Shown here: positions 27,181 to 64,000 of the stretch, piece after piece
Layout of the letters: each line of letters opens with the position of its first letter
Position numbering within the stretch: the stretch's first letter is position 1
Source: Auanema rhodensis
Lineage: Eukaryota > Animalia > Nematoda
Direction: 5' to 3'
DNA length: 64,000 nt
Assembly (NCBI GenBank): GCA_964057225.1
Contig: OZ059896.1
Coordinates: forward strand, 18,538,001-18,602,000
The notes under the pieces: generated by a model
Told to the model about the DNA's origin: nothing
Seen by the model: only the letters and a program-made list of their open reading frames with translations
Database searches by the model: none
Position numbers and translations under genes: made by a program

Positions 27181-30100
27181 TTTTTTTGGTATTCTTCGGA
27201 TCCGAAGTCCGCCGCCTTATCCATTAGACCACAAGGCCGTGTAAATCTTATGTAAATTAGACAATTTGTATAACCCAACCCAGTAACTCACTAAAATGTA
27301 GTTGATTTTTTTTTATCGATTCTAGGTCTGAAAAAATAAAAATATGAAATAATACTTTTATTTTAGTACCTTATGAGAAAACCTTTGGGAAATTTTTGAT
27401 ACTTTCTCACTCTGAATAGGAACATTTTCGAGAATATTATCACTGCATTTGTTTTACTGCTAGTATTTTTTTCAATTGTATGAGATAATACAGAACAAAA
27501 CATGTAAACTATCAGGTAATGATTGTTTTAAAACAAAAAATAACGACCCTGGTAGGACTCGAACCTACAATCTTCGGATCCGAAGTCCGACGCCTTATCC
27601 ATTAGGCCACAAGGCCATGTAAATCGCATTCAAATTAGACAATTTGTATAACCCAACCCAGTAACTCACTAAAATGTAGTTGATTTTTTTTTATCGATTC
27701 TAGGTCTGAAAAAATAATAATATGAAATAATACTTTTATTTTAGTACCTTATGAGAAAACCTTTGGGAAATTTTTGATACTTTCTCACTCTGAATAGGAA
27801 CATTTTCGAGAATATTATCACTGCATTTGTTTCACTGCTAGTATTTTTTTCAATTGTATGAGATAATACAGAACAAAACATGTAAACTATCAGGTAATGA
27901 TTTTTTTAAAACAAAAAATAACGACCCTGGCAGGACTCGAACCTACAATCTTCGGATCCGAAGTCCGACGCCTTATCCATTAGGCCACAAAGCCATCTAA
28001 ATCGCATTCAAATTAGACAACTTGTATAACCCAACCCAGTAACTCACTAACATGTAGTTGATTTTTTTTTATCGATTCTAGGTCTGAAAAAATAATAATA
28101 TTAAATAATACTTTTATTTTAGTACCTTATGAGAAAACCTTCGGGAAATTTTTGATATTTTCTCACTCTGTATAGGAACATTCTCGAGAATAATATCACT
28201 GCATTCGTTTTACTGCTAGTATTTTTTTTAATTGTATGAGATAATACAGAATAAAACATGTAAACTATCAGGTAATGATTTTTTTAAAACAAAAAATAAC
28301 GACCCTGGCAGGACTCGAATCTACAATCTTCGGATCCGAAGTCCGACGCCTTATCCATTAGGCCACAAGGCCATGTAAATCGCATTCAATTTAGACAATT
28401 TGTATAACCCAACCCAGTAACTCACTAAAATGTAGTTGATTTTTTTATCGATTCTAGGTTTGAAAAAATAATAATATGAAATAATACTTTTATTTTAGTA
28501 CCTTATGAGAAAACCTTTGGGAAATTTTTGATACTTTCTCACTCTGAATAGGAACATTTTCGAGAATATTATCACTGCATTTGTTTTACTGCTAGTATTT
28601 TTTTCAATTGTATGAGATAATACAGAACAAAACATGTAAACTATCAGGTAATGATTTTTTTAAAACAAAAAATAACGACCCTGGCAGGACTCGAACCTAC
28701 AATCTTCGGATCCGAAGTCCGACGCCTTATCCATTAGGCCACAAGGCCATGTAAATCGCATTCTAATTAGACAATTTGTATAACCCAACCCAGTAACTCA
28801 CTAAAATGTAGTTGATTTTTTTTTATCGATTCTAGGTCTGAAAAAATAATAATATGAAATAATACTTTTATTTTAGTACCTTATGAGAAAACCTTTGGGA
28901 AATTTTTGATACTTTCTCACTCTGAATAGGAACATATTCGAGAATATTATCACTGCATTTGTTTTACTGCTAGTATTTTTTTCAATTGTATGAGATAATA
29001 TAGAATAAAACATGTAAACTATTAGGTAATGATTGTTTTGAAACAAAAAATAACGACCCTGGCAGGACTCGAACCTACAATCTTCGGATCCGAAGTCCGA
29101 CGCCTTATCCATTAGGCCACAAGGCCATTTAAATCGCATTCAAATTAGAAAATTTGTATAACCCAACCCAGTAACTCACTAAAATGTAGTTGATTTTTTT
29201 TTATCGATTCTAGGTCTGAAAAAATAATAATATGAAATAATACTTTTATTTTAGTACCTTATGAGAAAACCTTCGGAAAATTTTTGATATTTTCTCACTC
29301 TGTATAGGAACATTCTCGAGAATATTATCACTACATTTGTTTTACTGCTAGTATTTTTTTCAATTGTATGAGATAATACAGAATAAAACATGTAAACTAT
29401 CAGGTAATGATTTTTTTAAAACAAAAAATAACGACCCTGGCAGGACTCGAACCTACAATCTTCGGATCCGAAGTCCGACGCCTTATCCATTAGGCCACAA
29501 GGCCATGTAAATCGCATTCTAATTAGACAATTTGTATAACCCAACCCAGTAACTCACTAAAATGTAGTTGATTTTTTTTTATCGATTCTAGGTCTGAAAA
29601 AATAATAATATGAAATAATACTTTTATTTTAGTACCTTATGAGAAAACCTTTGGGAAATTTTTGATACTTTCTCACTCTGAATAGGAACATATTCGAGAA
29701 TATTATCACTGCATTTGTTTTACTGCTAGTATTTTTTTCAATTGTATGAGATAATATAGAATAAAACATGTAAACTATTAGGTAATGATTGTTTTGAAAC
29801 AAAAAATAACGACCCTGGCAGGACTCGAACCTACAATCTTCGGATCCGAAGTCCGACGCCTTATCCATTAGGCCACAAGGCCATTTAAATCGCATTCAAA
29901 TTAGAAAATTTGTATAACCCAACCCAGTAACTCACTAAAATGTAGTTGATTTTTTTTTATCGATTCTAGGTCTGAAAAAATAATAATATGAAATAATACT
30001 TTTATTTTAGTACCTTATGAGAAAACCTTCGGAAAATTTTTGATATTTTCTCACTCTGTATAGGAACATTCTCGAGAATATTATCACTACATTTGTTTTA

Positions 30101-30937
30101 CTGCTAGTATTTTTTTCAATTGTATGAGATAATACAGAATAAAACATGTAAACTATCAGGTAATGATTTTTTTGAAACAAAAAATAACGACCCTGGTAGG
30201 ACTCGAACCTACAATCTTCGGATCCGAAGTCCGACGCCTTATCCATTAGGCCACAAGGCCATCTAAATCGCATTCAAATTAGACAATTTGTATAACCCAA
30301 CCCAGTAACTCACTAAAATGTAGTTGATTTTTTTTATCGATTCTAGGTCTGAAAAAATAATAATATGAAATAATACTTTTATTTTAGTACCTTATGAGAA
30401 AACCTTTGGGAAATTTTTGATATTTTCTCACTCTGAATAGGAACATTTTCGAGAATATTATCACTGCATTTGTTTTACTGCTAGTATTTTTTTCAATTGT
30501 ATGAGATAATATAGAATAAAACATGTAAACTATCAGGTAATGATTGTTTTAAAACAAAAAATAACGACCCTGGTAGGACTCGAACCTACAATCTTCGGAT
30601 CCGAAGTCCGACGCCTTATCCATTAGGCCACAAGGCCATGTAAATCGCATTCAAATTAGACAATTTGTATAACCCAACCCAGTAACTCACTAAAATGTAG
30701 TTGATTTTTTTTTATCGATTCTAGGTCTGAAAAAATAATAATATGAAATAATACTTTTATTTTAGTACCTTATGAGAAAACCTTCGGAAAATTTTTGATA
30801 TTTTCTCACTCTGTATAGGAACATTCTCGAGAATATTATCACTACATTTGTTTTACTGCTAGTATTTTTTTCAATTGTATGAGATAATACAGCATAAAAC
30901 ATGTAAACTATCAGGTAATGATTTTTTTGAAACAAAA

Positions 30938-30986
30938 ATCCGAAGTCCGCCTCCAAAAGACACCTTATCCATTAGGCTACAAGGCC
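30938..30986 (-). pseudogene. Rearranged tRNA-Arg 5' half (also at 32794-32842 and 33519-33567)
   Basis: Minus strand GGCCTTGTAGCCTAATGGATAAGGTGT-CTTTTGGAGG-CGGACTTCGGAT then directly the T-run: ~10-nt insertion, with T arm and 3' acceptor strand deleted. Confidence 0.9.
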
Positions 30987-33900
30987 ATGTAAATCTTATG
31001 TAAATTAGACAATTTGTATAACCCAACCCAGTAACTCACTAGAATAAAGTTCATTATTTCTATCGACTTTGGGTCTAAAAAAATAATAATATAAAATAGT
31101 ACTTTTATTTTAGTAACTTATGAGAAAACCTTCGGGAAATTTTTGATATTTTCTCACTCTGAATAGGAACATTCTCGAGAATATTATCACTGCATTTGTT
31201 TTAATGCTAGTATTTTTTTCAATTGTATGAGATAATACAGAATAAAACATGTAAACTATCAGGTAATGATTTTTTTAAAACAAAAAATAACGACCCTGGC
31301 AGGACTCGAACCTACAATCTTCGGATCCGAAGTCCGACGCCTTATCCATTAGGCCACAAAGCCATCTAAATCGCATTCAAATTAGACAATTTGTATAACC
31401 CAACCCAGTAACTCACTAAAATGTAGTTGATTTTTTTTATCGATTCTAGGTCTGAAAAAATAATAATATGAAATAATACTTTTATTTTAGTACCTTATGA
31501 GAAAACCTTCGGGAAATTTTTGATATTTTCTCACTCTGAATAGGAACATTTTCGAGAATATTATCACTGCATTTGTTTTATTGCTAGTATGTTTTTCAAT
31601 TGTATGAGATAATACAGAATAAAACATGTAAACTATCAGGTAATGATTTTTTTAAAACAAAAAATAACGACCCTGGCAGGACTCGAACCTACAATCTTCG
31701 GATCCGAAGTCCGACGCCTTATCCATTAGGCCACAAGGCCTAGTAAATCGCATTCTAATTAGACAATTTGTATAACCCAACCCAGTAACTCACTAAAATG
31801 TAGTTGAATTTTTTTATCGATTCTAGGTCTGAAAAAATAATAATATGAAATAATATTTTTATTTTGGTACCTTATGAGAAAACCTTCGGGAAATTTTTGA
31901 TACTTTCTCACTCTGAATAGGAACATTTTCGAGAATATTATCACTGCATTTGTTTTACTGCTAGTATTTTTTTTAATTGTATGAGATAATACAGAATAAA
32001 ACATGTAAACTATCAGGTAATGATTTTTTTGAAACAAAAAATAACGACCCTGGCAGGACTCGAACCTACAATCTTCGGATCCGAAGTCCGACGCCTTATC
32101 CATTAGGCCACAAGGCCATGTAAATCGCATTCAAATTAGACAATTTGTATAACCCAACCCAGTAACTCATTAAAATGTAGTTGATTTTTTTATCGATTCT
32201 AGGTCTGAAAAAATAATAATATGAAATAGTACTTTTATTTTAGTACCTTATGAGAAAACCTTCGGAAATTTTTTGATATTTTCTCACTCTGAATAGGAAC
32301 ATTCTCGAGAATATTATCACTGCATTTGTTTTAATGCTAGTATTTTTTCCAATTGTATGAGATAATACAGAATAAAACATGTAAACTATCAGGTAATGAT
32401 TTTTTTAAAACAGAAAATAACGACCCTGGCAGGACTCGAACCTACAATCTTCGGATCCGAAGTCCGACGCCTTATCCATTAGGCCACAAGGCCATGTAAA
32501 TCGCATTCAAATTAGACAATTTGTATAACCCAACCCAGTAACTCACTAAAATGTAGTTGATTTTTTTTTATCGATTCTAGGTCTGAAAAAATAATAATAT
32601 GAAATAATACTTTTATTTTAGTACCTTATGAGAAAACTTTCGGGAAATTTTTGATATTTTCTCACTCTGAATAGGAACATTTTCGAGAATATTATCACTG
32701 CATTTGTTTTATTGCTAGTATGTTTTTCAATTGTATGAGATAATACAGAATAAAACATGTAAACTATCAGGTAATGATTTTTTTGAAACAAAAATCCGAA
32801 GTCCGCCTCCAAAAGACACCTTATCCATTAGGCTACAAGGCCATGTAAATCTTATGTAAATTAGACAATTTGTATAACCCAACCCAGTAACTCACTAGAA
32901 TAAAGTTCATTATTTCTATCGACTTTGGGTCTAAAAAAATAATAATATAAAATAGTACTTTTATTTTAGTAACTTATGAGAAAACCTTCGGGAAATTTTT
33001 GATATTTTCTCACTCTGAATAGGAACATTCTCGAGAATATTATCACTGCATTTGTTTTAATGCTAGTATTTTTTTCAATTGTATGAGATAATACAGAATA
33101 AAACATGTAAACTATCAGGTAATGATTTTTTTAAAACAAAAAATAACGACCCTGGCAGGACTCGAACCTACAATCTTCGGATCCGAAGTCCGACGCCTTA
33201 TCCATTAGGCCACAAAGCCATCTAAATCGCATTCAAATTAGACAATTTGTATAACCCAACCCAGTAACTCACTAAAATGTAGTTGATTTTTTTTATCGAT
33301 TCTAGGTCTGAAAAAATAATAATATGAAATAATACTTTTATTTTAGTACCTTATGAGAAAACCTTCGGGAAATTTTTGATATTTTCTCACTCTGAATAGG
33401 AACATTTTCGAGAATATTATCACTGCATTTGTTTTATTGCTAGTATGTTTTTCAATTGTATGAGATAATACAGAATAAAACATGTAAACTATCAGGTAAT
33501 GATTTTTTTGAAACAAAAATCCGAAGTCCGCCTCCAAAAGACACCTTATCCATTAGGCTACAAGGCCATGTAAATCTTATGTAAATTAGACAATTTGTAT
33601 AACCCAACCCAGTAACTCACTAGAATAAAGTTCATTATTTCTATCGACTTTGGGTCTAAAAAAATAATAATATAAAATAGTACTTTTATTTTAGTAACTT
33701 ATGAGAAAACCTTCGGGAAATTTTTGATATTTTCTCACTCTGAATAGGAACATTCTCGAGAATATTATCACTGCATTTGTTTTAATGCTAGTATTTTTTT
33801 CAATTGTATGAGATAATACAGAATAAAACATGTAAACTATCAGGTAATGATTTTTTTAAAACAAAAAATAACGACCCTGGCAGGACTCGAACCTACAATC

Positions 33901-35755
33901 TTCGGATCCGAAGTCCGACGCCTTATCCATTAGGCCACAAAGCCATCTAAATCGCATTCAAATTAGACAATTTGTATAACCCAACCCAGTAACTCACTAA
34001 AATGTAGTTGATTTTTTTTATCGATTCTAGGTCTGAAAAAATAATAATATGAAATAATACTTTTATTTTAGTACCTTATGAGAAAACCTTCGGGAAATTT
34101 TTGATATTTTCTCACTCTGAATAGGAACATTTTCGAGAATATTATCACTGCATTTGTTTTATTGCTAGTATGTTTTTCAATTGTATGAGATAATACAGAA
34201 TAAAACATGTAAACTATCAGGTAATGATTTTTTTAAAACAAAAAATAACGACCCTGGCAGGACTCGAACCTACAATCTTCGGATCCGAAGTCCGACGCCT
34301 TATCCATTAGGCCACAAGGCCTAGTAAATCGCATTCTAATTAGACAATTTGTATAACCCAACCCAGTAACTCACTAAAATGTAGTTGATTTTTTTTATCG
34401 ATTCTAGGTCTGAAAAAATAATAATATGAAATAATATTTTTATTTTGGTACCTTATGAGAAAACCTTCGGGAAATTTTTGATACTTTCTCACTCTGAATA
34501 GGAACATTTTCGAGAATATTATCACTGCATTTGTTTTACTGCTAGTATTTTTTTTAATTGTATGAGATAATACAGAATAAAACATGTAAACTATCAGGTA
34601 ATGATTTTTTTGAAACAAAAAATAACGACCCTGGCAGGACTCGAACCTACAATCTTCGGATCCGAAGTCCGACGCCTTATCCATTAGGCCACAAGGCCAT
34701 GTAAATCGCATTCAAATTAGACAATTTGTATAACCCAACCCAGTAACTCATTAAAATGTAGTTGATTTTTTTATCGATTCTAGGTCTGAAAAAATAATAA
34801 TATGAAATAGTACTTTTATTTTAGTACCTTATGAGAAAACCTTCGGAAATTTTTTGATATTTTCTCACTCTGAATAGGAACATTCTCGAGAATATTATCA
34901 CTGCATTTGTTTTAATGCTAGTATTTTTTCCAATTGTATGAGATAATACAGAATAAAACATGTAAACTATCAGGTAATGATTTTTTTAAAACAGAAAATA
35001 ACGACCCTGGCAGGACTCGAACCTACAATCTTCGGATCCGAAGTCCGACGCCTTATCCATTAGGCCACAAGGCCATCTAAATCGCATTCAAATTAGACAA
35101 TTTGTATAACCCAACCCAGTAACTCACTAAAATGTAGTTGATTTTTTTCATCGATTCTAGGTCTGAAAAAATAATAATATGAAATAATACTTTTATTTTA
35201 GTACCTTATGAGAAAACTTTCGGGAAATTTTTGATATTTTCTCACTCTGAATAGGAACATTTTCGAGAATATTATCACTGCATTTGTTTTATTGCTAGTA
35301 TGTTTTTCAATTGTATGAGATAATACAGAATAAAACATGTAAACTATCAGGTAATGATTTTTTTAAAACAAAAAATAACGACCCTGGCAGGACTCGAACC
35401 TACAATCTTCGGATCCGAAGTCCGACGCCTTATCCATTAGGCCACAAGGCCATGTAAATCGCATTCTAATTAGACAATTTGTATAACCCAACCCAGTAAC
35501 TCACTAAAATGTAGTTGATTTTTTTTATCGATTCTAGGTCTGAAAAAATAATAATATGAAATATTATTTTTATTTTAGTACCTTATGAGAAAACCTTCGG
35601 GAAATTTTTGATACTTTCTCACTCTGAATAGGAACATTTTCGAGAATATTATCACTGCATTTGTTTTACTGCTAGTATTTTTTTCAATTGTATGAGATAA
35701 TACAGAATAAAACATGTAAACTATCAGGTAATGATTTTTTTGAAACAAAAAATAA

Positions 35756-35828
35756 CGACCCTGGCAGGACTCGAACCTACAATCTTCGGATCCGAAGTCC
35801 GACGCCTTATCCATTAGGCCACAAGGCC
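35756..35828 (-). tRNA. tRNA-Arg(TCG), representative minus-strand copy
   Basis: 73-nt cloverleaf identical to 38621-38693. Confidence 0.95.
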
Positions 35829-37499
35829 ATGTAAATCGCATTCAAATTAGACAATTTGTATAACCCAACCCAGTAACTCATTAAAATGTAGTTGATTTTT
35901 TTTATCGATTCTAGGTCTGAAAAAATAATAATATGAAATAATACTTTTATTTTAGTACCTTATGAGAAAACCTTTGGGAAATTTTTGATACTTTCTCACT
36001 CTGAATAGGAACATTCTCGAGAATATTATCACAGCATTTGTTTTACTGCTAGTATTTTTTTCAATTGTATGAGATAATACAGAATTAAACATGTAAACTA
36101 TCAGGTAATGATTTTTTTAAAACAGAAAATAACGACCCTGGCAGGACTCGAACCTACAATCTTCGGATCCGAAGTCCGACGCCTTATCCATTAGGCCACA
36201 AGGCCATGTAAATCGCATTCTAATTAGACAATTTGTATAACCCAACCCAGTAACTCACTAAAATGTAGTTGATTTTTTTTATCGATTCTAGGTCTGAAAA
36301 AATAATAATATGAAATATTATTTTTATTTTAGTACCTTATGAGAAAACCTTCGGGAAATTTTTGATACTTTCTCACTCTGAATAGGAACATTTTCGAGAA
36401 TATTATCACTGCATTTGTTTTACTGCTAGTATTTTTTTCAATTGTATGAGATAATACAGAATAAAACATGTAAACTATCAGGTAATGATTTTTTTGAAAC
36501 AAAAAATAACGACCCTGGCAGGACTCGAACCTACAATCTTCGGATCCGAAGTCCGACGCCTTATCCATTAGGCCACAAGGCCATGTAAATCGCATTCAAA
36601 TTAGACAATTTGTATAACCCAACCCAGTAACTCATTAAAATGTAGTTGATTTTTTTTATCGATTCTAGGTCTGAAAAAATAATAATATGAAATAGTACTT
36701 TTATTTTAGTACCTTATGAGAAAACCTTCGGAAATTTTTTGATATTTTCTCACTCTGAATAGGAACATTCTCGAGAATATTATCACTGCATTTGTTTTAC
36801 TGCTAGTATTTTTTTCAATTGTATGAGATAATACAGAATAAAACATGTAAACTATCAGGTAATGATTTTTTTAAAACAGAAAATAACGACCCTGGCCGGA
36901 CTCGAACCTATACAAATTGTCTAATTTGAATGCGATTTAGATGGCCTTGTGGCCTAATGGATAAGGCGTCGGACTTCGGATCCAAAGATTGTAGGTTCGA
37001 GTCCTACCAGGGTCGTTACTTTTTGTTTTAAAAAAATCATTACCTGATAGTTTACATGTTTTATTCTGTATTATCTCATACAATTGAAAAAAATACTAGC
37101 AATAAAACAAATGCAGTGATAATATTCTCGAAAATGTTCCTATTCAGAGTGAGAAAATATCAAAAATTTCCCGAAGGTTTTTTCATAAGGTACTAAAATA
37201 AAAGTATTATTTCATATTATTATTTTTTCAGACCTAGAATCGATAAAAAAATCAACTACATTTTAGTGAGTTACTGGGTTGGGTTATACAAATTGTCTAA
37301 ATTGAATGCGATTTAGATGGCCTTGTGGCCTAATGAATAAGGCATTGGACTTCGGATCCGAAGATTGTAGGTTCGAGTCCTGCCAGGGTCGTTATTTTTT
37401 GTTTCAAAACAATCAATACCTGATAGTTTACATGTTTTATTCTGTATTATCTCATACAATTGAAAAAAATACTAGCAATAAAACAAATGCAGTGATAAT

Positions 37500-37607
37500 A
37501 TAAAACATGTAAACTATCAGGTAATGATTTTTTTGAAACAAAAAATAACGACCCTGGCAGGACACGAACCTACAATCTTCGGATCCGAAGTCCGACGCCT
37601 TATCCAT
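37500..37607 (-). repeat. Local ~108-bp inverted insert of tRNA 3' part + trailer (second copy 38339-38446)
   Basis: ATAAAACATGTAAACTATCAGG...CGACCCTGGCAGGACACGAACC...CCTTATCCAT replaces ~20 bp of spacer inside a plus-strand unit. Confidence 0.92.
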
Positions 37608-38620
37608 CAGAGTGAGAAAATATCAAAAATTTCCCGAAGGTTTTCTCATAAGGTACTAAAATAAAAGTATTATTTTATATTATTATTTTTTCAGACCTAG
37701 AATCGATAAAAAAATCAACTTCATTTTAGTGAGTTACTGGGTTGGGTTATACAAATTGTCTAATTTGAATGCGATTTAGATGGCCTTGTGGCCTAATGGA
37801 TAAGGCGTCGGACTTCGGATCCAAAGATTGTAGGTTCGAGTCCTACCAGGGTCGTTACTTTTTGTTTTAAAAAAATCATTACCTGATAGTTTACATGTTT
37901 TATTCTGTATTATCTCATACAATTGAAAAAAATACTAGCAATAAAACAAATGCAGTGATAATATTCTCGAAAATGTTCCTATTCAGAGTGAGAAAATATC
38001 AAAAATTTCCCGAAGGTTTTCTCATAAGGTACTAAAATAAAAGTATTATTTCATATTATTATTTTTTCAGACCTAGAATCGATAAAAAAATCAACTACAT
38101 TTTAGTGAGTTACTGGGTTGGGTTATACAAATTGTCTAATTTGAATGCGATTTAGATGGCCTTGTGGCCTAATGAATAAGGCATTGGACTTCGGATCCGA
38201 AGATTGTAGGTTCGAGTCCTGCCAGGGTCGTTATTTTTTGTTTCAAAACAATCAATACCTGATAGTTTACATGTTTTATTCTGTATTATCTCATACAATT
38301 GAAAAAAATACTAGCAATAAAACAAATGCAGTGATAATATAAAACATGTAAACTATCAGGTAATGATTTTTTTGAAACAAAAAATAACGACCCTGGCAGG
38401 ACACGAACCTACAATCTTCGGATCCGAAGTCCGACGCCTTATCCATCAGAGTGAGAAAATATCAAAAATTTCCCGAAGGTTTTCTCATAAGGTACTAAAA
38501 TAAAAGTATTATTTTATATTATTATTTTTTCAGACCTAGAATCGATAAAAAAATCAACTTCATTTTAGTGAGTTACTGGGTTGGGTTATACAAATTGTCT
38601 AATTTGAATGCGATTTACAT

Positions 38621-38693
38621 GGCCTTGTGGCCTAATGGATAAGGCGTCGGACTTCGGATCCGAAGATTGTAGGTTCGAGTCCTGCCAGGGTCG
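38621..38693 (+). tRNA. tRNA-Arg(TCG), representative copy
   Basis: GGCCTTG TG GCCT AATGGATA AGGC G TCGGA CT-TCG-GA TCCGA AGATT GTAGG TTCGAGT CCTGC CAGGGTC G: all four stems pair, A box TGGCCTAATGG, B box GTTCGAGTC, no intron, followed by a TTATTTTTT Pol III terminator. Confidence 0.97.
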
Positions 38694-39129
38694 TTATTTT
38701 TTGTTTCAAAAAAATCATTACCTGATAGTTTACATGTTTTATTCTGTATTATCTCATACAATTGAAAAAAATACTAGCAGTAAAACAAATGCAGTGATAT
38801 TTATCTCGAGAATGTTTCTATTCAGAGTGAGAAAATATCAAAAATTTTCCGAAGGTTTTCTCATAAGGTACTAAAATAAAAGTATTATTTCATATTATTA
38901 TTTTTTCAGACCTAGAATCGATAAAAAAATCAACTACATTTTAGTGAGTTACTGGGTTGGGTTATACAAATTGTCTAATTTGAATGCGATTTACATGGCC
39001 TTGTGGCCTAATGGATAAGGCGTCGGACTTCGGATCCGAAGATTGTAGGTTCGAGTCCTGCCAGGGTCGTTATTTTTTGTTTCAAAAAAATCATTACCTG
39101 ATAGTTTACATGTTTCATTCTGTATTATC

Positions 39130-39487
39130 CGTTCCGTTATGCTCCCGCGTCGATCTTACAGACCAATGGAGTCTACAAGATGAGCGTGGTAGTATTCCAG
39201 ATGTAGCGGTTAAACATGGAGCATAAGGATAAACATAAGACTCGAGAAAGATTGGTTTATTATATCTACGTGATTACAATAAGATACATATAACTAAGTA
39301 AAGGTTAAACTAATAGAGAACAGAGAGAGAACGACCAACCATCCATGATCGTCCCTGAGGCAAAGCTGAAGTGTTGTAATATGGAAAAGGGCGGGTCGTC
39401 TTCTCTCAGTCTCGCATTCTCTGACTCTAACCCGCCTGCTACAGCTTCGTCATATGAATGTAATGCATTGATCATTCGAATGGAACG
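39130..39487 (-). repeat. 3' LTR (358 bp)
   Basis: CGTTCCGTT...AATGGAACG; three substitutions found relative to 50258-50615. Minus-strand TATATA (39287-39292) and AATAAA (39256-39261). Confidence 0.97.
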
Positions 39488-39489
39488 TG

Positions 39490-39498
39490 CCCTTTTTC
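39490..39498 (-). promoter_or_regulatory. Putative polypurine tract
   Basis: Minus strand GAAAAAGGG-CA immediately precedes the 3' LTR; short. Confidence 0.55.
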
Positions 39499-40030
39499 GA
39501 GTTTATGTCGCGTCCTCGCGACAATCAAAAGTTTTGACTTGAACAACTGTAGCAGAAGGGTTAATGTGTGTATTAAAGTACATGAAAATATACTTATAAA
39601 ATAATAATAAAAAAGTTTTTAAGTATAACGCTCTAACAAGTGTAGACAAAAAGTTAACTATTTTTTTGCTAGAGCTCGGTTGTTTGTTTCAATTTGTGTG
39701 AGTTTAGAAAAAAAAAGAAAAGTTTTGCGTAATACCAAATAACTTCCAAATTGAGTCATTGATTACTCAAGTGAAGACTGTTGCTCAGATATTGTTGCAA
39801 ACTATGTCTTTCATTTTTCATCTCATCTAGTATGGGGAAGTTAGTTGAAATTAGGAAGGTTCGAACTATATGATAAAGAATTATCTTCTCACATTTCCCG
39901 TGTTCATTATGCTCTAGTTTACTTTTTGACTTAAGAGTGACTTGTTTTAGAGGACTCGTTACAAAATTTGTGTTCTAGTATTACTTTAAAGAAAGTTATT
40001 ACAAAACAATTTACAATAAAATCTCATGAG

Positions 40031-50615: not shown

Positions 50616-53600
50616 ATACTAGCAGTAAAACAAATGCAGTGATAATATTCTCGAAAATGTTCCTATTCAGAGTGAGAAAGTATCAAAAATTTCCCGAAGG
50701 TTTTCTCATAAGGTACTAAAATAAAATTATTATTTCATATTATTATTTTTTCAGACCTAGAATCGATAAAAAATATCAACTACATTTTAGTGAGTTACTG
50801 GGTTGGGTTATACAAATTGTCTAATTAGAATGCGATTTACATGGCCTTGTGGCCTAATGGATAAGGCGTCGGACTTCGGATCCGAAGATTGTAGGTTCGA
50901 GTCCTGCCAGGGTCGTTATTTTTTGTTTCAAAACAATCAATACCTGATAGTTTACATGTTTTATTCTGTATTATCTCATACAATTGAAAAAAATACTAGC
51001 AATAAAACAAATGCAGTGATAATATTCTCGAAAATGTTCCTATACAGAGTGAGAAAATATCTACAATTTCCCGAAGGTTTTCTCATAAGGTACTAAAATA
51101 AAAGTATTATTTCATATTATTATTTTTTCAGACCTAGAATCGATAAAAAAAATCAACTACATTTTAGTGAGTTACTGGGTTGGGTTATACAAATTGTCTA
51201 ATTTGAATGCGATTTAGATGGCCTTGTGGCCTAATGGATAAGGCGTCGGACTTCGGATCCGAAGATTGTAGGTTCGAGTCCTACCAGGGTCGTTATTTTT
51301 TGTTTTAAAAAAATCATTACCTGATAGTTTACATGTTTTATTCTATATTATCTCATACAATTGAAAAAAATACTAGCAGTAAAACAAATGCAGTGATATT
51401 ATTCTCGAGAATGTTCCTATTCAGAGTGAGAAAATATCAAAAATTTTCCGAAGGTTTTCTCATAAGGTACTAAAATAAAAGTATTATTTCATATTATTAT
51501 TTTTTCAGACCTAGAATCGATAAAAATATCAACTACATTTTAGTGAGTTACTGGGTTGGGTTATACAAATTGTCTAATTTGAATGCGATTTACATGGCCT
51601 TGTGGCCTAATGGATAAGGCGTCGGATTTCGGATCCGAAGATTGTAGGTTCGAGTCCTGCCAGGGTTGTTATTTTTTGTTTCAAAACAATCATTACCTGA
51701 TAGTTTACATGTTTTATTCTGTATTATCTCATACAATTGAAAAAAATACTAGCAGTAAAACAAATGCAGTGATAATATTCTCGAAAATGTTCCTATTCAG
51801 AGTGAGAAAGTATCAAAAATTTCCCGAAAGTTTTCTCATAAGGTACTAAAATAAAAGTATTATTTCATATTATTATTTTTTCAGACCTAGAATCGATAAA
51901 AAAAATCAACTACATTTTAGTGAGTTACTGGGTTGGGTTATACAAATTGTCTAATTTGAATGCGATTTAGATGGCCTTGTGGCCTAATGGATAAGGCGTC
52001 GGACTTCGGATCCGAAGATTGTAGGTTCGAGTCCTACCAGGGTCGTTATTTTTTGTTTTAAAAAAATCATTACCTGATAGTTAACATGTTTTATTCTGTA
52101 TTATCTCATACAATTGAAAAAAATACTAGCAGTAAAACAAATGCAGTGATATTATTCTCGAGAATGTTCCTATTCAGAGTGAGAAAATATCAAAAATTTT
52201 CCGAAGGTTTTCTCATAAGGTACTAAAATAAAAGTATTATTTCATATTATTATTTTTTCAGACCTAGAATCGATAAAAATATCAACTACATTTTAGTGAG
52301 TTACTGGGTTGGGTTATACAAATTGTCTAATTTGAATGCGATTTACATGGCCTTGTGGCCTAATGGATAAGGCGTCGGATTTCGGATCCGAAGATTGTAG
52401 GTTCGAGTCCTGCCAGGGTTGTTATTTTTTGTTTCAAAACAATCATTACCTGATAGTTTACATGTTTTATTCTGTATTATCTCATACAATTGAAAAAAAT
52501 ACTAGCAGTAAAACAAATGCAGTGATAATATTCTCGAAAATGTTCCTATTCAGAGTGAGAAAGTATCAAAAATTTCCCGAAAGTTTTCTCATAAGGTACT
52601 AAAATAAAAATATTATTTCATATTATTATTTTTTCAGACCTAGAATCGATAAAAAATATCAACTACATTTTAGTGAGTTACTGGGTTGGGTTATACAAAT
52701 TGTCTAATTTGAATGCGATTTAGATGGCCTTGTGGCCTAATGGATAAGGCGTCGGACTTCGGATCCGAAGATTGTAGGTTCGAGTCCTACCAGGGTCGTT
52801 ATTTTTTGTTTTAAAAAAATCATTACCTGATAGTTAACATGTTTTATTCTGTATTATCTCATACAATTGAAAAAAATACTAGCAGTAAAACAAATGCAGT
52901 GATATTATTCTCGAGAATGTTCCTATTCAGAGTGAGAAAATATCAAAAATTTTCCGAAGGTTTTCTCATAAGGTACTAAAATAAAAGTATTATTTCATAT
53001 TATTATTTTTTCAGACCTAGAATCGATAAAAATATCAACTACATTTTAGTGAGTTACTGGGTTGGGTTATACAAATTGTCTAATTTGAATGCGATTTACA
53101 TGGCCTTGTGGCCTAATGGATAAGGCGTCGGATTTCGGATCCGAAGATTGTAGGTTCGAGTCCTGCCAGGGTTGTTATTTTTTGTTTCAAAACAATCATT
53201 ACCTGATAGTTTACATGTTTTATTCTGTATTATCTCATACAATTGAAAAAAATACTAGCAGTAAAACAAATGCAGTGATCATATTCTCGAAAATGTTCCT
53301 ATTCAGAGTGAGAAAGTATCAAAAATTTCCCGAAAGTTTTCTCATAAGGTACTAAAATAAAAATATTATTTCATATTATTATTTTTTCAGACCTAGAATC
53401 GATAAAAAATATCAACTACATTTTAGTGAGTTACTGGGTTGGGTTATACAAATTGTCTAATTTGAATGCGATTTAGATGGCCTTGTGGCCTAATGGATAA
53501 GGCGTCGGACTTCGGATCCGAAGATTGTAGGTTCGAGTCCTACCAGGGTCGTTATTTTTTGTTTTAAAAAAATCATTACCTGATAGTTAACATGTTTTAT

Positions 53601-56600
53601 TCTGTATTATCTCATACAATTGAAAAAAATACTAGCAGTAAAACAAATGCAGTGATATTATTCTCGAGAATGTTCCTATTCAGAGTGAGAAAATATCAAA
53701 AATTTTCCGAAGGTTTTCTCATAAGGTACTAAAATAAAAGTATTATTTCATATTATTATTTTTTCAGACCTAGAATCGATAAAAAATATCAACTACATTT
53801 TAGTGAGTTACTGGGTTGGGTTATACAAATTGTCTAATTTGAATGCGATTTAGATGGCCTTGTGGCCTAATGGATAAGGCGTCGGATTTCGGATCCGAAG
53901 ATTGTAGGTTCGAGTCCTGCCAGGGTCGTTATTTTTTGTTTCAAAAAAATCATTACCTGATAGTTAACATGTTTTATTCTGTATTATCTCATACAATTGA
54001 AAAAAATACTAGCAGTAAAACAAATGCAGTGATAATATTCTCGAAAATGTTCCTATTCAGAGTGAGAAAGTATCAAAAATTTCCCGAAAGTTTTCTCATA
54101 AGGTACTAAAATAAAAATATTATTTCATATTATTATTTTTTCAGACCTAGAATCGATAAAAAATATCAACTACATTTTAGTGAGTTACTGGGTTGGGTTA
54201 TACAAATTGTCTAATTTGAATGCGATTTAGATGGCCTTGTGGCCTAATGGATAAGGCGTCGGACTTCGGATCCGAAGATTGTAGGTTCGAGTCCTACCAG
54301 GGTCGTTATTTTTTGTTTTAAAAAAATCATTACCTGATAGTTAACATGTTTTATTCTGTATTATCTCATACAATTGAAAAAAATACTAGCAGTAAAACAA
54401 ATGCAGTGATATTATTCTCGAGAATGTTCCTATTCAGAGTGAGAAAATATCAAAAATTTTCCGAAGGTTTTCTCATAAGGTACTAAAATAAAAGTATTAT
54501 TTCATATTATTATTTTTTCAGACCTAGAATCGATAAAAATATCAACTACATTTTAGTGAGTTACTGGGTTGGGTTATACAAATTGTCTAATTTGAATGCG
54601 ATTTACATGGCCTTGTGGCCTAATGGATAAGGCGTCGGATTTCGGATCCGAAGATTGTAGGTTCGAGTCCTGCCAGGGTTGTTATTTTTTGTTTCAAAAC
54701 AATCATTACCTGATAGTTAACATGTTTTATTCTGTATTATCTCATACAATTGAAAAAAATACTAGCAGTAAAACAAATGCAGTGATATTATTCTCGAGAA
54801 TGTTCCTATTCAGAGTGAGAAAATATCAAAAATTTTCCGAAGGTTTTCTCATAAGGTACTAAAATAAAAGTATTATTTCATATTATTATTTTTTCAGACC
54901 TAGAATCGATAAAAAATATCAACTACATTTTAGTGAGTTACTGGGTTGGGTTATACAAATTGTCTAATTTGAATGCGATTTAGATGGCCTTGTGGCCTAA
55001 TGGATAAGGCGTCGGATTTCGGATCCGAAGATTGTAGGTTCGAGTCCTGCCAGGGTCGTTATTTTTTGTTTCAAAAAAATCATTACCTGATAGTTTACAT
55101 GTTTTATTCTGTATTATCTCATACAATTGAAAAAAATACTAGCAGTAAAACAAATGCAGTGATAATATTCTCGAAAATGTTCCTATTCAGAGTGAGAAAG
55201 TATCAAAAATTTCCCGAAAGTTTTCTCATAAGGTACTAAAATAAAAATATTATTTCATATTATTATTTTTTCAGACCTAGAATCGATAAAAAATATCAAC
55301 TACATTTTAGTGAGTTACTGGGTTGGGTTATACAAATTGTCTAATTTGAATGCGATTTAGATGGCCTTGTGGCCTAATGGATAAGGCGTCGGACTTCGGA
55401 TCCGAAGATTGTAGGTTCGAGTCCTGCCAGGGTCGTTATTTTTTGTTTCAAAAAAATCATTACCTGATAGTTTACATGTTTTATTCTGTATTATCTCATA
55501 CAATTGAAAAAAATACTAGCAGTAAAATAAATGCAGTGATAATATTCTCGAAAATGTTCCTATTCAGAGTGAGAAAGTATCAAAAATTTCCCGAAAGTTT
55601 TCTCATAAGGTACTAAAATAAAAGTATTATTTCATATTATTATTTTTTCAGACCTAGAATCGATAAAAAAATCAACTACATTTTAGTGAGTTACTGGGTT
55701 GGGTTATATAAATTGTCTAATTTGAATTCGATTTAGATGGCCTTGTGGCCTAATGGATAAGGCGTAGGATTTCGGATCCGAAGATTGTAGGTTCGAGTCC
55801 TGCCAGGGTCGTTATTTTTTGTTTCAAAAAAAATCATTACCTGATAGTTTACATGTTTTATTCTGTATTATCTCATACAATTGAAAAAAATACTAGCAGT
55901 AAAACAAATGCAGTGATAATATTCTCGAAAATGTTCCTATTCAGAGTGAGAAAGTATCAAAAATTTCCCGAAAGTTTTCTCATAAGGTACTAAAATAAAA
56001 GTATTATTTCATATTATTATTTTTTCAGACCTAGAATCGATAAAAAAATCAACTACATTTTAGTGAGTTACTGGGTTGGGTTATACAAATTGTCTAATTT
56101 GAATGCGATTTAGATGGCCTTGTGGCCTAATGGATAAGGCGTCGGACTTCGGATCCGAAGATTGTAGGTTCGAGTCCTACCAGGGTCGTTATTTTTTGTT
56201 TTAAAAAAATCATTACCTGATAGTTAACATGTTTTATTCTGTATTATCTCATACAATTGAAAAAAATACTAGCAGTAAAACAAATGCAGTGATATTATTC
56301 TCGAGAATGTTCCTATTCAGAGTGAGAAAATATCAAAAATTTTCCGAAGGTTTTCTCATAAGGTACTAAAATAAAAGTATTATTTCATATTATTATTTTT
56401 TCAGACCTAGAATCGATAAAAAAATCAACTACATTTTAGTGAGTTACTGGGTTGGGTTATACAAATTGTCTAATTTGAATGCGATTTACATGGCCTTGTG
56501 GCCTAATGGATAAGGCGTCGGACTTCGGATCCGAAGATTGTAGGTTCGAGTCCTGCCAGGGTCGTTATTTTTTGTTTCAAAAAAATCATTACCTGATAGT

Positions 56601-59600
56601 TTACATGTTTTATTCTGTATTATCTCATACAATTGAAAAAAATACTAGCAGTAAAACAAATGCAGTGATAATATTCTCGAAAATGTTCCTATTCAGAGTG
56701 AGAAAGTATCAAAAATTTCCCGAAAGTTTTCTCATAAGGTACTAAAATAAAAATATTATTTCATATTATTATTTTTTCAGACCTAGAATCGATAAAAAAT
56801 ATCAACTACATTTTAGTGAGTTACTGGGTTGGGTTATACAAATTTGAATGCGATTTAGATGGCCTTGTGGCCTAATGGATAAGGCGTCGGATTTCGGATC
56901 CGAAGATTGTAGGTTCGAGTCCTGCCAGGGTCGTTATTTTTTGTTTCAAAAAAATCATTACCTGATAGTTTACATGTTTTATTCTGTATTATCTCATACA
57001 ATTGAAAAAAATACTAGCAGTAAAACAAATGCAGTGATAATATTCTCGAAAATGTTCCTATTCAGAGTGAGAAAGTATCAAAAATTTCCCGAAAGTTTTC
57101 TCATAAGGTACTAAAATAAAAATATTATTTCATATTATTATTTTTTCAGACCTAGAATCGATAAAAAATATCAACTACATTTTAGTGAGTTACTGGGTTG
57201 GGTTATACAAATTGTCTAATTTGAATGCGATTTAGATGGCCTTGTGGCCTAATGGATAAGGCGTCGGACTTCGGATCCGAAGATTGTAGGTTCGAGTCCT
57301 ACCAGGGTCGTTATTTTTTGTTTTAAAAAAATCATTACCTGATAGTTAACATGTTTTATTCTGTATTATCTCATACAATTGAAAAAAATACTAGCAGTAA
57401 AACAAATGCAGTGATATTATTCTCGAGAATGTTCCTATTCAGAGTGAGAAAATATCAAAAATTTTCCGAAGGTTTTCTCATAAGGTACTAAAACAAAAGT
57501 ATTATTTCATATTATTATTTTTTCAGACCTAGAATCGATAAAAAAATCAACTACATTTTAGTGAGTTACTGGGTTGGGTTATACAAATTGTCTAATTTGA
57601 ATGCGATTTACATGGCCTTGTGGCCTAATGGATAAGGCGTCGGACTTCGGATCCGAAGATTGTAGGTTCGAGTCCTGCCAGGGTCGTTATTTTTTGTTTT
57701 AAAAAAATCATTACCTGATAGTTAACATGTTTTATTCTGTATTATCTCATACAATTGAAAAAAATACTAGCAGTAAAACAAATGCAGTGATATTATTCTC
57801 GAGAATGTTCCTATTCAGAGTGAGAAAATATCAAAAATTTTCCGAAGGTTTTCTCATAAGGTACTAAAATAAAAGTATTATTTCATATTATTATTTTTTC
57901 AGACCTAGAATCGATAAAAAATATCAACTACATTTTAGTGAGTTACTGGGTTGGGTTATACAAATTGTCTAATTTGAATGCGATTTAGATGGCCTTGTGG
58001 CCTAATGGATAAGGCGTCGGATTTCGGATCCGAAGATTGTAGGTTCGAGTCCTGCCAGGGTCGTTATTTTTTGTTTCAAAACAATCAATACCTGATAGTT
58101 TACATGTTTTATTCTGTATTATCTCATACAATTGAAAAAAATACTAGCAATAAAACAAATGCAGTGATAATATTCTCGAAAATGTTTCTATACAGAGTGA
58201 GAAAATATCTACAATTTCCCGAAGGTTTTCTCATAAGGTACTAAAATAAAAGTATTATTTCATATTATTAGTTTTTCAGACCTAGAATCGATAAAAAAAA
58301 TCAACTACATTTTAGTGAGTTACTGGGTTGGGTTATACAAATTGTCTAATTTGAATGCGATTTAGATGGCCTTGTGGCCTAATGGATAAGGCGTCGGACT
58401 TCGGATCCAAAGATTGTAGGTTCGAGTCCTACCAGGGTCGTTATTTTTTGTTTTAAAAAAATCATTACCTGATAGTTTACATGTTTTATTCTGTATTATC
58501 TCATACAATTGAAAAAATACTAGCAGTAAAACAAATGCAGTGATAATATTCTCGAAAATGTTCCTATTCAGAGTGAGAAAGTATCAAAAATTTCCCGAAA
58601 GTTTTCTCATAAGGTACTAAAATAAAAATATTATTTCATATTATTATTTTTTCAGACCTAGAATCGATAAAAAATATCAACTACATTTTAGTGAGTTACT
58701 GGGTTGGGTTATACAAAATGTCTAATTAGAATGCGATTTAGATGGCCTTGTGGCCTAATGGATAAGGCGTCGGACTTCGGATCCGAAGATTGTAGGTTCG
58801 AGTCCTACCAGGGTCGTTATTTTTTGTTTTAAAAAAATCATTACCTGATAGTTTACATGTTTTATTCTGTATTATATCATACAATTGAAAAAAATACTAG
58901 CAGTAAAACAAATGCAGTGATATTATTCTCGAGAATGTTCCTATTCAGAGTGAGAAAATATCAAAAATTTTCCGAAGGTTTTCTCATAAGGTACTAAAAT
59001 AAAAGTATTATTTCATATTATTATTTTTTCAGACCTAGAATCGATAAAAAAATCAACTACATTTTAGTGAGTTACTGGGTTGGGTTATACAAATTGTCTA
59101 ATTTGAATGCGATTTACATGGCCTTGTGGCCTAATGGATAAGGCGTCGGACTTCGGATCCGAAGATTGTAGGTTCGAGTCCTGCCAGGGTCGTTATTTTT
59201 TGTTTCAAAAAAATCATTACCTGATAGTTTACATGTTTTATTCTGTATTATCTCATACAATTGAAAAAAATACTAGCAGTAAAACAAATGCAGTGATAAT
59301 ATTCTCGAAAATGTTCCTATTCAGAGTGAGAAAGTATCAAAAATTTCCCGAAAGATTTCTCATAAGGTACTAAAATAAAAATATTATTTCATATTATAAT
59401 TTTTTCAGACCTAGAATCGATAAAAAATATCAACTACATTTTAGTGAGTTACTGGGTTGGGTTATACAAATTGTCTAATTAGAATGCGATTTACATGGCC
59501 TTGTGGCCTAATGGATAAGGCGTCGGACTTCGGATCCGATGATTGTAGGTTCGAGTCCTGCCAGGGTCGTTATTTTTTGTTTCAAAACAATCATTACCTG

Positions 59601-62600
59601 ATAGTTTACATGTTTTATTCTGTATTATCTCATACAATTGAAAAAAATACTAGCAGTAAAACAAATGCAGTGATATTATTCTCGAGAATGTTCCTATTCA
59701 GAGTGAGAAAATATCAAAAATTTTCCGAAGGTTTTCTCATAAGGTACTAAAATAAAAGTATTATTTCATATTATTATTTTTTCAGACCTAGAATCGATAA
59801 AAAATATCAACTACATTTTAGTGAGTTACTGGGTTGGGTTATACAAAATGTCTAATTAGAATGCGATTTAGATGGCCTTGTGGCCTAATGGATAAGGCGT
59901 CGGACTTCGGATCCGAAGATTGTAGGTTCGAGTCCTACCAGGGTCGTTATTTTTTGTTTTAAAAAAATCATTACCTGATAGTTTACATGTTTTATTCTGT
60001 ATTATATCATACAATTGAAAAAAATACTAGCAGTAAAACAAATGCAGTGATATTATTCTCGAGAATGTTCCTATTCAGAGTGAGAAAATATCAAAAATTT
60101 TCCGAAGGTTTTCTCATAAGGTACTAAAATAAAAGTATTATTTCATATTATTATTTTTTCAGACCTAGAATCGATAAAAAAATCAACTACATTTTAGTGA
60201 GTTACTGGGTTGGGTTATACAAATTGTCTAATTTGAATGCGATTTACATGGCCTTGTGGCCTAATGGATAAGGCGTCGGACTTCGGATCCGAAGATTGTA
60301 GGTTCGAGTCCTGCCAGGGTCGTTATTTTTTGTTTCAAAAAAATCATTACCTGATAGTTTACATGTTTTATTCTGTATTATCTCATACAATTGAAAAAAA
60401 TACTAGCAGTAAAACAAATGCAGTGATAATATTCTCGAAAATGTTCCTATTCAGAGTGAGAAAGTATCAAAAATTTCCCGAAAGATTTCTCATAAGGTAC
60501 TAAAATAAAAATATTATTTCATATTATAATTTTTTCAGACCTAGAATCGATAAAAAATATCAACTACATTTTAGTGAGTTACTGGGTTGGGTTATACAAA
60601 TTGTCTAATTAGAATGCGATTTACATGGCCTTGTGGCCTAATGGATAAGGCGTCGGACTTCGGATCCGATGATTGTAGGTTCGAGTCCTGCCAGGGTCGT
60701 TATTTTTTGTTTCAAAACAATCATTACCTGATAGTTTACATGTTTTATTCTGTATTATCTCATACAATTGAAAAAAATACTAGCAGTAAAACAAATGCAG
60801 TGATATTATTCTCGAGAATGTTCCTATTCAGAGTGAGAAAATATCAAAAATTTTCCGAAGGTTTTCTCATAAGGTACTAAAATAAAAGTATTATTTCATA
60901 TTATTATTTTTTCAGACCTAGAATCGATAAAAAAATCAACTACATTTTAGTGAGTTACTGGGTTGGGTTATACAAATTGTCTAATTTGAATGCGATTTAC
61001 ATGGCCTTGTGGCCTAATGGATAAGGCGTCGGACTTCGGATCCGAAGATTGTAGGTTCGAGTCCTGCCAGGGTCGTTATTTTTTGTTTCAAAACAATCAA
61101 TACCTGATAGTTTACATGTTTTATTCTGTATTATCTCATACAATTGAAAAAAATACTAGCAATAAAACAAATGCAGTGATAATATTCTCGAAAATGTTTC
61201 TATACAGAGTGAGAAAATATCTACAATTTCCCGAAGGTTTTCTCATAAGGTACTAAAATAAAAGTATTATTTCATATTATTATTTTTTCAGACCTAGAAT
61301 CGATAAAAAAAATCAACTACATTTTAGTGAGTTACTGGGTTGGGTTATACAAATTGTCTAATTTGAATGCGATTTAGATGGCCTTGTGGCCTAATGGATA
61401 AGGCGTCGGACTTCGGATCCGAAGATTGTAGGTTCGAGTCCTACCAGGGTCGTTATTTTTTGTTTTAAAAAAATCATTACCTGATAGTTTACATGTTTTA
61501 TTCTGTATTATATCATACAATTGAAAAAAATACTAGCAGTAAAACAAATGCAGTGATATTATTCTCGAGAATGTTCCTATTCAGAGTGAGAAAATATCTA
61601 CAATTTCCCGAAGGTTTTCTCATAAGGTACTAAAATAAAAGTATTATTTCATATTATTATTTTTTCAGACCTAGAATCGATAAAAAAATCAACTACATTT
61701 TAGTGAGTTACTGGGTTGGGTTATACAAATTGTCTAATTTGAATGCGATTTACATGGCCTTGTGGCCTAATGGATAAGGCGTCGGACTTCGGATCCGAAG
61801 ATTGTAGGTTCGAGTCCTGCCAGGGTCGTTATTTTTTGTTTTAAAAAAATCATTACCTGATAGTTAACATGTTTTATTCTGTATTATATCATACAATTGA
61901 AAAAAATACTAGCAGTAAAACAAATGCAGTGATATTATTCTCGAGAATGTTCCTATTCAGAGTGAGAAAATATCAAAAATTTTCCGAAGGTTTTCTCATA
62001 AGGTACTAAAATAAAAGTATTATTTCATATTATTATTTTTTCAGACCAAGAATCGATAAAAAATATCAACTACATTTTAGTGAGTTACTGGGTTGGGTTA
62101 TACAAATTGTCTAATTTGAATGCGATTTAGATGGCCTTGTGGCCTAATGGATAAGGCGTCGGATTTCGGATCCGAAGATTGTAGGTTCGAGTCCTGCCAG
62201 GGTCGTTATTTTTTGTTTCAAAACAATCAATACCTGATAGTTTACATGTTTTATTCTGTATTATCTCATACAATTGAAAAAAATACTAGCAATAAAACAA
62301 ATGCAGTGATAATATTCTCGAAAATGTTTCTATACAGAGTGAGAAAATATCTACAATTTCCCGAAGGTTTTCTCATAAGGTACTAAAATAAAAGTATTAT
62401 TTCATATTATTATTTTTTCAGACCTAGAATCGATAAAAAAAATCAACTACATTTTAGTGAGTTACTGGGTTGGGTTATACAAATTGTCTAATTTGAATGC
62501 GATTTACATGGCCTTGTGGCCTAATGGATAAGGCGTCGGACTTCGGATCCGAAGATTGTAGGTTCGAGTCCTGCCAGGGTCGTTATTTTTTGTTTCAAAA

Positions 62601-64000
62601 CTATCAATACCTGATAGTTTACATGTTTTATTCTGTATTATCTCATACAATTGAAAAAAATACTAGCAGTAAAACAAATGCAGTGATAATATTCTCGAAA
62701 ATGTTCCTATTCAGAGTGAGAAAGTATCAAAAATTTCCCGAAAGTTTTCTCATAAGGTACTAAAATAAAAGTATTATTTCATATTATTATTTTTTCAGAC
62801 CTAGAATCGATAAAAAAAATCAACTACATTTTAGTGAGTTACTGGGTTGGGTTATACAAATTGTCTAATTTGAATGCGATTTAGATGGCCTTGTGGCCTA
62901 ATGGATAAGGCGTCGGACTTCGGATCCAAAGATTGTAGGTTCGAGTCCTACCAGGGTCGTTATTTTTTGTTTTAAAAAAATCATTACCTGATAGTTTACA
63001 TGTTTTATTCTGTATTATCTCATACAATTGAAAAAATACTAGCAGTAAAACAAATGCAGTGATAATATTCTCGAAAATGTTCCTATTCAGAGTGAGAAAG
63101 TATCAAAAATTTCCCGAAAGTTTTCTCATAAGGTACTAAAATAAAAATATTATTTCATATTATTATTTTTTCAGACCTAGAATCGATAAAAAATATCAAC
63201 TACATTTTAGTGAGTTACTGGGTTGGGTTATACAAAATGTCTAATTAGAATGCGATTTAGATGGCCTTGTGGCCTAATGGATAAGGCGTCGGACTTCGGA
63301 TCCGAAGATTGTAGGTTCGAGTCCTACCAGGGTCGTTATTTTTTGTTTTAAAAAAATCATTACCTGATAGTTTACATGTTTTATTCTGTATTATATCATA
63401 CAATTGAAAAAAATACTAGCAGTAAAACAAATGCAGTGATATTATTCTCGAGAATGTTCCTATTCAGAGTGAGAAAATATCAAAAATTTTCCGAAGGTTT
63501 TCTCATAAGGTACTAAAATAAAAGTATTATTTCATATTATTATTTTTTCAGACCTAGAATCGATAAAAAAATCAACTACATTTTAGTGAGTTACTGGGTT
63601 GGGTTATACAAATTGTCTAATTTGAATGCGATTTACATGGCCTTGTGGCCTAATGGATAAGGCGTCGGACTTCGGATCCGAAGATTGTAGGTTCGAGTCC
63701 TGCCAGGGTCGTTATTTTTTGTTTCAAAAAAATCATTACCTGATAGTTTACATGTTTTATTCTGTATTATCTCATACAATTGAAAAAAATACTAGCAGTA
63801 AAACAAATGCAGTGATAATATTCTCGAAAATGTTCCTATTCAGAGTGAGAAAGTATCAAAAATTTCCCGAAAGATTTCTCATAAGGTACTAAAATAAAAA
63901 TATTATTTCATATTATAATTTTTTCAGACCTAGAATCGATAAAAAATATCAACTACATTTTAGTGAGTTACTGGGTTGGGTTATACAAATTGTCTAATTA
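50616..64000 (+). tRNA. tRNA-Arg(TCG) tandem array, plus strand, 35 full-length copies (first 50843, last 63639-63711), continues past the window end
   Basis: 376-377-bp period; dimer (753 bp: 51583/52336/53089) and trimer (1130 bp: 59107/60237, 59457/60587) higher-order blocks. Confidence 0.97.

Follow-up and report, generated by a model that had tools for sequence, protein, structure and literature searches.

A satellite-like array of tRNA-Arg(TCG) genes in nematode DNA that is probably germline-restricted

Introduction

In the nematode Auanema rhodense, the repeats that are restricted to the germline have units of 167-504 nt and include arrays of tRNA genes at a density below 20%, as described in the available passages of a preprint (bioRxiv 10.64898/2026.08.27.747507). 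The same passages give 19,554 tRNA genes for this species, with 215 called pseudogenes, and the authors favour a build-up of repeats under weak selection. In Entamoeba, according to the accessible part of one report, almost all tRNA genes are arrayed, in units of up to five genes that run head to tail, are nearly uniform within a genome and are of unclear function (PMC2652664). Here, a 64,000-nucleotide stretch of DNA (contig OZ059896.1, positions 18,538,001 to 18,602,000), referred to as the window, is described, in which a single gene for tRNA-Arg(TCG) and its flank are repeated at a period of about 377 bp. The explanation that is favoured, with moderate confidence, is that of a head-to-tail, satellite-like array in germline-restricted DNA, which would have grown by unequal exchange or slippage with weak selection on the tRNA; the host is likely a rhabditid nematode.

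DNA elimination was found in 17 of the 25 rhabditid species of one screen. As a reason for somatic DNA elimination, the A. rhodense authors favour this build-up of repeats under weak selection, yet the DNA that is eliminated holds many tRNA genes that look intact. The value of the present array is that differences in sequence make the question of its expression testable.

Structure of the array

ARAGORN finds 63 tRNA genes between positions 27543 and 63712 of the window, every one a tRNA-Arg(TCG), and Rfam recognises each of them with a score of 57-69 bits, the gathering score being 29. The period is 376-378 bp in 54 of the 55 complete units and 369 bp in the remaining one. By Tandem Repeats Finder and BLAST of one unit, the array DNA sums to 25,324 bp in three blocks, 18% of it tRNA, and all 77 BLAST matches of the unit to the window lie inside these blocks. 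The original prediction, made from the letters alone, was of at least 63 such genes over about 25 kb at a period of about 377 bp, and the four programs bear it out; the array also leaves the window as predicted, given that its right block is open at 64000.

The genes have the features of eukaryotic nuclear tRNA-Arg(UCG) genes, namely a cloverleaf with the TCG anticodon, an A and a B box, a T run and no encoded CCA. The anticodon is TCG in all 63, and the A-box and B-box patterns match 61 and 62 genes, respectively. At least five T lie within 20 nt 3' of the gene in 60 of the 63, and the three bases that follow the gene are TTA, never CCA, in every copy. All stem pairs are kept in 57 genes and one pair is broken in the other six; two further genes (37319 and 38158) carry a change in the A box, which leaves 55 of 63 structurally intact in stems and promoter boxes. 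The expectation that most copies would retain cloverleaf, promoter boxes and terminator therefore holds. Ten tRNA alleles are present, the commonest in 26 genes and the top two together in 40, and the two commonest variants, G64A (18/63) and C32T (10/63), disrupt no stem pair. Minimum-energy folding of three of the alleles gave structures other than the cloverleaf, with z about -1.8. Open reading frames (ORFs) of 100-123 amino acids that cross the unit were rejected as protein genes and are by-products of the repeat.

A representative unit (61003..61379, plus strand) consists of the 73-nt tRNA gene in its commonest allele, a terminator-like run of six T and a 304-bp spacer, 25% GC. The genes are divided between the strands, 22 on the minus and 41 on the plus. 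The left block (27193..36910, minus strand) holds 22 full genes at a period of about 377 bp, along with a 5' partial gene at its edge (27193-27238, minus), three units that lack most of the tRNA (remnants at 30959-30986, 32815-32842 and 33540-33567, minus) and a 3' tRNA remnant at the inversion joint. At this joint (36909..36910) the minus and plus blocks meet, with 2 bp common to both sides. The middle block (36909..39129, plus strand) holds six full genes, among them two copies of a rearranged unit, each of which contains an inverted 111-bp stretch of unit sequence (37500-37610 and 38339-38449). The right block (50616..64000, plus strand) holds 35 full genes at a period of 376-377 bp, apart from the single 369-bp unit. 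Beyond the 63 full genes, BLAST reveals seven additional tRNA copies that are partial or internally deleted.

Genes for tRNA can act as chromatin barriers and as condensin sites. Dense sites for TFIIIC and RNA polymerase III (Pol III) in the array could likewise organise germline chromatin, as a barrier, for condensin loading or as a landmark for meiotic pairing, given that most copies keep intact promoter boxes and that the A. rhodense authors, in the passages available, speculate that chromosome-specific repeat blocks help homologs to pair (bioRxiv 10.64898/2026.08.27.747507). Such a structural role is nevertheless quite improbable for an array in which an inversion, deletions and an insertion of 11.5 kb are all tolerated.

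Evolution of the units and possible constraint on the tRNA

The 55 complete units were aligned, with 8 of the 63 omitted because they adjoin a deletion, a joint or an edge. Among the 55 there are 44 distinct sequences and 13 pairs of identical units, and units of the same block differ on average at about 11 columns, as against 12 for a unit of the minus block compared with one of the right block. Neighbouring units differ more than units two apart (12.2 against 10.0 columns in the right block, and 13.1 against 8.9), which hints at higher-order structure. Blocks of up to 1,210 bp are duplicated exactly in the array. One lesion that deletes the tRNA is present three times and one unit with a 111-bp inverted piece is present twice; therefore, broken units have spread along with intact ones. 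The copying of damage together with intact genes is as would be expected under unequal exchange or slippage.

The inversion joint and both 111-bp inverted inserts lie close together, in a span of 1.6 kb (36909-38449), which suggests that replication template switching may have produced them.

Evidence for constraint on the tRNA gene in the array is weak. Variable columns number 8 of 73 in the gene and 62 of 304 in the spacer (Fisher p=0.067), with diversities of 0.016 and 0.031. When gap columns are dropped and base class is controlled, the 8 variable columns of the gene compare with 14.2 expected (p=0.046), and 27 of 232 overlapping 73-nt windows of the spacer are as conserved as the gene.

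These comparisons bear on the possibility that the dosage of the genes is selected in the germline, such that the array would provide germ cells, oocytes and early embryos with additional tRNA-Arg(UCG) and elimination would lower the dose in the soma. The high proportion of intact genes with a T run, variation in the gene at about half the level of the spacer and the harmlessness of G64A and C32T to stem pairing are in keeping with selected dosage, as is the small number of pseudogenes called among A. rhodense tRNA loci in the passages available (bioRxiv 10.64898/2026.08.27.747507). On the other hand, the signal of constraint is marginal, with p values of 0.046-0.067, duplication has spread seven broken copies and eight damaged genes, and a young, homogenised array would look intact even if selection were absent. 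Selected dosage is considered the main rival explanation, though a rather unlikely one. The idea in the original prediction that there are more gene copies than translation requires is plausible; the window itself offers no host genes from which codon usage could be taken.

Public contigs and the reality of the array

Part of the region 22300-28400 occurs in ten public DNA runs from three studies, and at least half of its words occur in seven of them. No RNA run is listed as containing the region, which carries no information on expression. The left flank of the array (26250..27192), of which 26250-27164 is unique in the window at the level of 31-mers, served as the depth reference. Flank contigs with zero differences measure 907 nt in run X1, 915 nt in X2, 194-394 nt in X5 and 230-272 nt in X7. 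The joint between flank and array is bridged in X1 by a 139-nt contig with no differences, which covers 49 letters on one side and 90 on the other at a depth of 95, the flank being at 74. The array spacer (36698-36910) is present also in run X9, from the third study and under another organism label.

The unit is far deeper than the flank. Single unit contigs in X2 have depths of 2,411 and 3,144 with the flank at 16.5, and three contigs summed at one place reach 4,164. Unit depth is 920 in X7 (flank 3.4-3.5) and 2,489 in X5 (flank 4.0). The resulting ratios of unit to flank are 146-252 in X2, 267 in X7 and 619 in X5, and these rough contig depths suggest a total of several hundred copies. In X1, the summed unit depths (about 2-5 x 10^5) include contigs that overlap one another and were not taken as copy numbers. 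In X5 the spacer is left uncovered, which filtering can cause and to which no weight was given.

A unit that is hundreds of times deeper than its flank argues against inflation by the assembly. Over-expansion of a few real genes, which had been named beforehand as an outcome that read depth might reveal, would be compatible with the 13 pairs of identical units, with exact repeats of up to 1.2 kb and with the inversion joint at 36909/36910, for which no bridging contig is found among the public pieces listed. In contrast, most of the complete units are distinct (44 of 55), unit variants recur in public contigs, and the excess of unit over flank, about 150-600-fold in three runs, is seen in runs of two studies. 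Contig depth thus lends over-expansion no support, and the likelihood that it accounts for the array is negligible.

Probable germline restriction and proposed origin of the array

A tRNA-Arg-like 5' half lies on one and the same non-array flank in X1, X5 and X7, at loose ends of contigs. In X5, this dispersed copy is carried by a 5,071-nt contig at a depth of 51.2 and shows 3 differences from the array gene in its first 44 positions (aligned to 27574-27617). The contig ends at the same base as the 44-nt contig of the array, as would result if the two share sequence through the anticodon in the k-mer graph. The dispersed copy is a candidate for the somatic gene.

In the same run, the array flank is found in three contigs with no differences at depths of 3.6-4.3, and in X7 in two contigs at 3.4-3.5. 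The ratio of flank to dispersed contig in X5 is 0.079, or about 13-fold shallower, as measured from contig depths with one calibrator contig. For comparison, in the available passages on A. rhodense eliminated DNA is covered 29-fold and retained DNA 236-fold, a ratio of 0.12 (bioRxiv 10.64898/2026.08.27.747507). It is thus probable that the array lies in germline-restricted DNA, with the qualification that a depth test on one calibrator and on contig depths is suggestive rather than proof. Restriction to the germline was one of several options in the original prediction; the shallow flank in X5, together with the tRNA arrays described in the available account of eliminated A. rhodense DNA, adds support to it.

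Alternatively, the array could be ordinary retained DNA, or a haplotype of low frequency, with the depth contrast arising from a multi-copy calibrator or from a mixture of samples. The single calibrator in a single run and the limits of contig depth leave room for this alternative, and retained repeat blocks do exist in A. rhodense as far as the preprint's available passages go (bioRxiv 10.64898/2026.08.27.747507). It is nonetheless improbable, because in both X5 and X7 the flank is found at a depth of 3.4-4.3, broken into pieces of 194-394 bp that carry no differences, and because the X5 depth would leave about eight copies of the 44-mer beyond those of the window, though the array continues.

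Several observations weigh against the favoured explanation of a satellite-like array in germline-restricted DNA. Contig depth is neither a copy number nor a share of cells, the calibrator is one contig in one run (X5) and could be multi-copy, and a low-frequency haplotype would give an equally low flank depth. If the array lay as deep as the calibrator, the X5 figures would correspond to about 49 copies of the 44-mer, of which the window holds 41, which is tight but possible. The contig that bridges flank and array is found in X1 only, and the window may itself derive from X1. The window contains no tandem telomere hexamers and no elimination boundary, the place of which would be beyond it. 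Variation is lower in the tRNA than in the spacer, in better agreement with selection than with pure neutrality, although some spacer windows are equally conserved. Finally, A. rhodense keeps large repeat blocks on its somatic X-derived chromosomes, as stated in the passages available (bioRxiv 10.64898/2026.08.27.747507).

The repeat setting was counted in favour of a satellite-like array, with the 451/477-bp satellite at 1-17553 and the near-identical terminal repeats of the inserted element, both described below. Under the favoured explanation, a tRNA gene together with 300 bp of flanking sequence would have turned into a satellite monomer, within DNA lost from the soma. The monomer would have been amplified by recombination, either unequal exchange or slippage, and the array would later have been inverted in part and invaded by a retroelement. 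Selection on the tRNA gene in the array would be mild at most. Somatic cells would decode CGA with the dispersed tRNA-Arg gene or genes, and whatever Pol III transcripts the array might yield would be limited to germline and early embryo.

The array might instead be a transcribed, germline-only set of tRNA-Arg(UCG) genes, in which case elimination would act as a one-way switch from several hundred genes to one or a few somatic ones; this idea is tentative and rather doubtful. It is equally speculative that such a set, with a 5' arm unlike that of the dispersed somatic gene, would by analogy be the tRNA counterpart of the oocyte-type 5S genes. The 3 differences in 44 letters from the dispersed copy, together with the internal alleles of the array itself, mean that tRNA sequencing can separate array transcripts from somatic ones. 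If the array is expressed, elimination regulates tRNA dosage; if it is silent, a functional gene has been turned into satellite DNA.

The inserted Ty3/gypsy element

The gap between the middle and right blocks is filled by a Ty3/gypsy long terminal repeat (LTR) element of about 11.5 kb with gag-env-pol order (39130..50615, minus strand). Its LTRs (39130-39487 and 50258-50615) are 358 bp long and differ at 3 positions, and the element is young. Two in-frame stops, at 45569-45571 and 42668-42670, interrupt its single reading frame. Pfam domains occur in the order gag, class III fusion protein, protease, reverse transcriptase, RNase H and integrase, and the env region matches Monjiviricetes_fusion (E=5e-13) and, below the cut-off of that family, Glycoprotein_B (E=5e-9). 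The LTRs begin and end with CG...CG rather than TG...CA, and a primer site directly follows the 5' LTR. Among 120 matches listed for the polymerase, the best five are labelled Heterorhabditis, Caenorhabditis (three) and Auanema, an indirect pointer to a rhabditid host.

The element is inserted 60 bp downstream of a tRNA gene. The insertion site has no target-site duplication and lacks about 17 bp of the unit; it was therefore probably changed at or after the time of insertion.

The position of an LTR element inside the array, so near a tRNA gene, raises the possibility that the array yields tRNA fragments or primers that act on such elements. The primer-binding site of the element does not fit the array tRNA, however, since only the first three bases and one more match its 3' end with CCA added, and the array tRNA has no 10-mer in common with either strand of the element. 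A function of this kind is thus highly unlikely. The primer site bears a tentative likeness to the 3' end of a tRNA-Gln. The 12-mer of the primer site found no match in the supplements of PMC13524379.

Other repeats in the window

The window is mostly filled by two tandem arrays, the LTR element and an inverted duplication, and the only ORFs of more than 170 amino acids are those of the element, in a scan that covered unspliced reading frames. The second satellite occupies 1-17553 (plus strand) in units of 451 and 477 bp with about 30% GC and, at its left, a higher-order period of 1,773 bp. It flips orientation at about 17553, and BLAST shows no relationship between it and the tRNA unit.

The inverted duplication is 3.9 kb long (17940-21830 and 22296-26241, 97.6% identity), and its outer ends resemble the 477-bp satellite. 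Decayed ORF fragments in it may derive from a hAT-type transposase, judging from their motifs; Pfam gave no match to them. Two ORFs of the flank were without a Pfam match. Two decayed tRNA-like sequences lie in the duplication as well (21273-21344, plus, and 22782-22853, minus), with an Rfam tRNA score of 22.4 bits (E=0.6), under the gathering score of 29.

The left edge of the tRNA array starts 5 bp past a 61-bp stretch akin to the 477-bp satellite (27127-27193). This satellite-related stretch runs into other sequence elsewhere in public contigs.

Comparison with known systems

A tRNA-derived short interspersed element (SINE) has a tRNA-like Pol III head, a body and a tail, and its copies are interspersed. 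The array resembles a SINE or a SINE-derived satellite in that its units are tandem and begin with a tRNA-like Pol III head. Unlike in a SINE, the head of the unit is an entire tRNA, which a T run follows after 4 nt, individual units have neither an A-rich tail nor a target-site duplication, and no copy occurs in the window outside the array. The candidate was rejected on account of the complete tRNA, the T run and the confinement of all 77 unit matches to the array.

The parallel with Entamoeba, which had been drawn from the outset, is loose. The head-to-tail layout of the tRNA genes is shared and is the only likeness to the arrays in the available part of PMC2652664. There, units contain up to five genes, whereas the present unit has one gene and a dispersed tRNA-Arg-like copy exists besides the array. 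The spacers of E. histolytica and E. dispar contain short tandem repeats in that account, and Tandem Repeats Finder detects none in the array spacer.

Nematode errantiviruses have a GAG-ENV-POL layout with an env of the HSV/gB type (HSV for herpes simplex virus), as set out in the available part of PMC13524379. The inserted element resembles them as a Ty3/gypsy element with a class III fusion domain between gag and pol, and it has the LTRs, primer site, gag, gB-type env, protease, reverse transcriptase, RNase H and integrase of a GAG-ENV-POL element in order. It differs from those described in that part in its two in-frame stops, the CG...CG ends of its LTRs and the lack of a target-site duplication.

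No paper was found that deals with how a germline-restricted tRNA-Arg array is expressed or what its function is, in a search whose coverage left most subscription journals outside. A preprint on elimination in Mesorhabditis does not mention tRNA, and a genome paper on C. brenneri contains nothing relevant to tRNA arrays.

The closest known case is that of the germline-restricted tandem tRNA arrays of A. rhodense, as far as they are described in the available passages (bioRxiv 10.64898/2026.08.27.747507). The main text of that preprint names no anticodon, and unit structure, alleles, constraint and expression of the tRNA arrays are not among its available passages; the present array may already be tabulated in its tables S3 and S4. 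In those passages, eliminated DNA has about an eighth of the coverage of retained DNA, and the array flank in X5 is at about a thirteenth of the depth of the calibrator. In both cases, tandem and mostly intact tRNA genes lie among satellite blocks, and the density of tRNA is below 20% in A. rhodense and 18% here.

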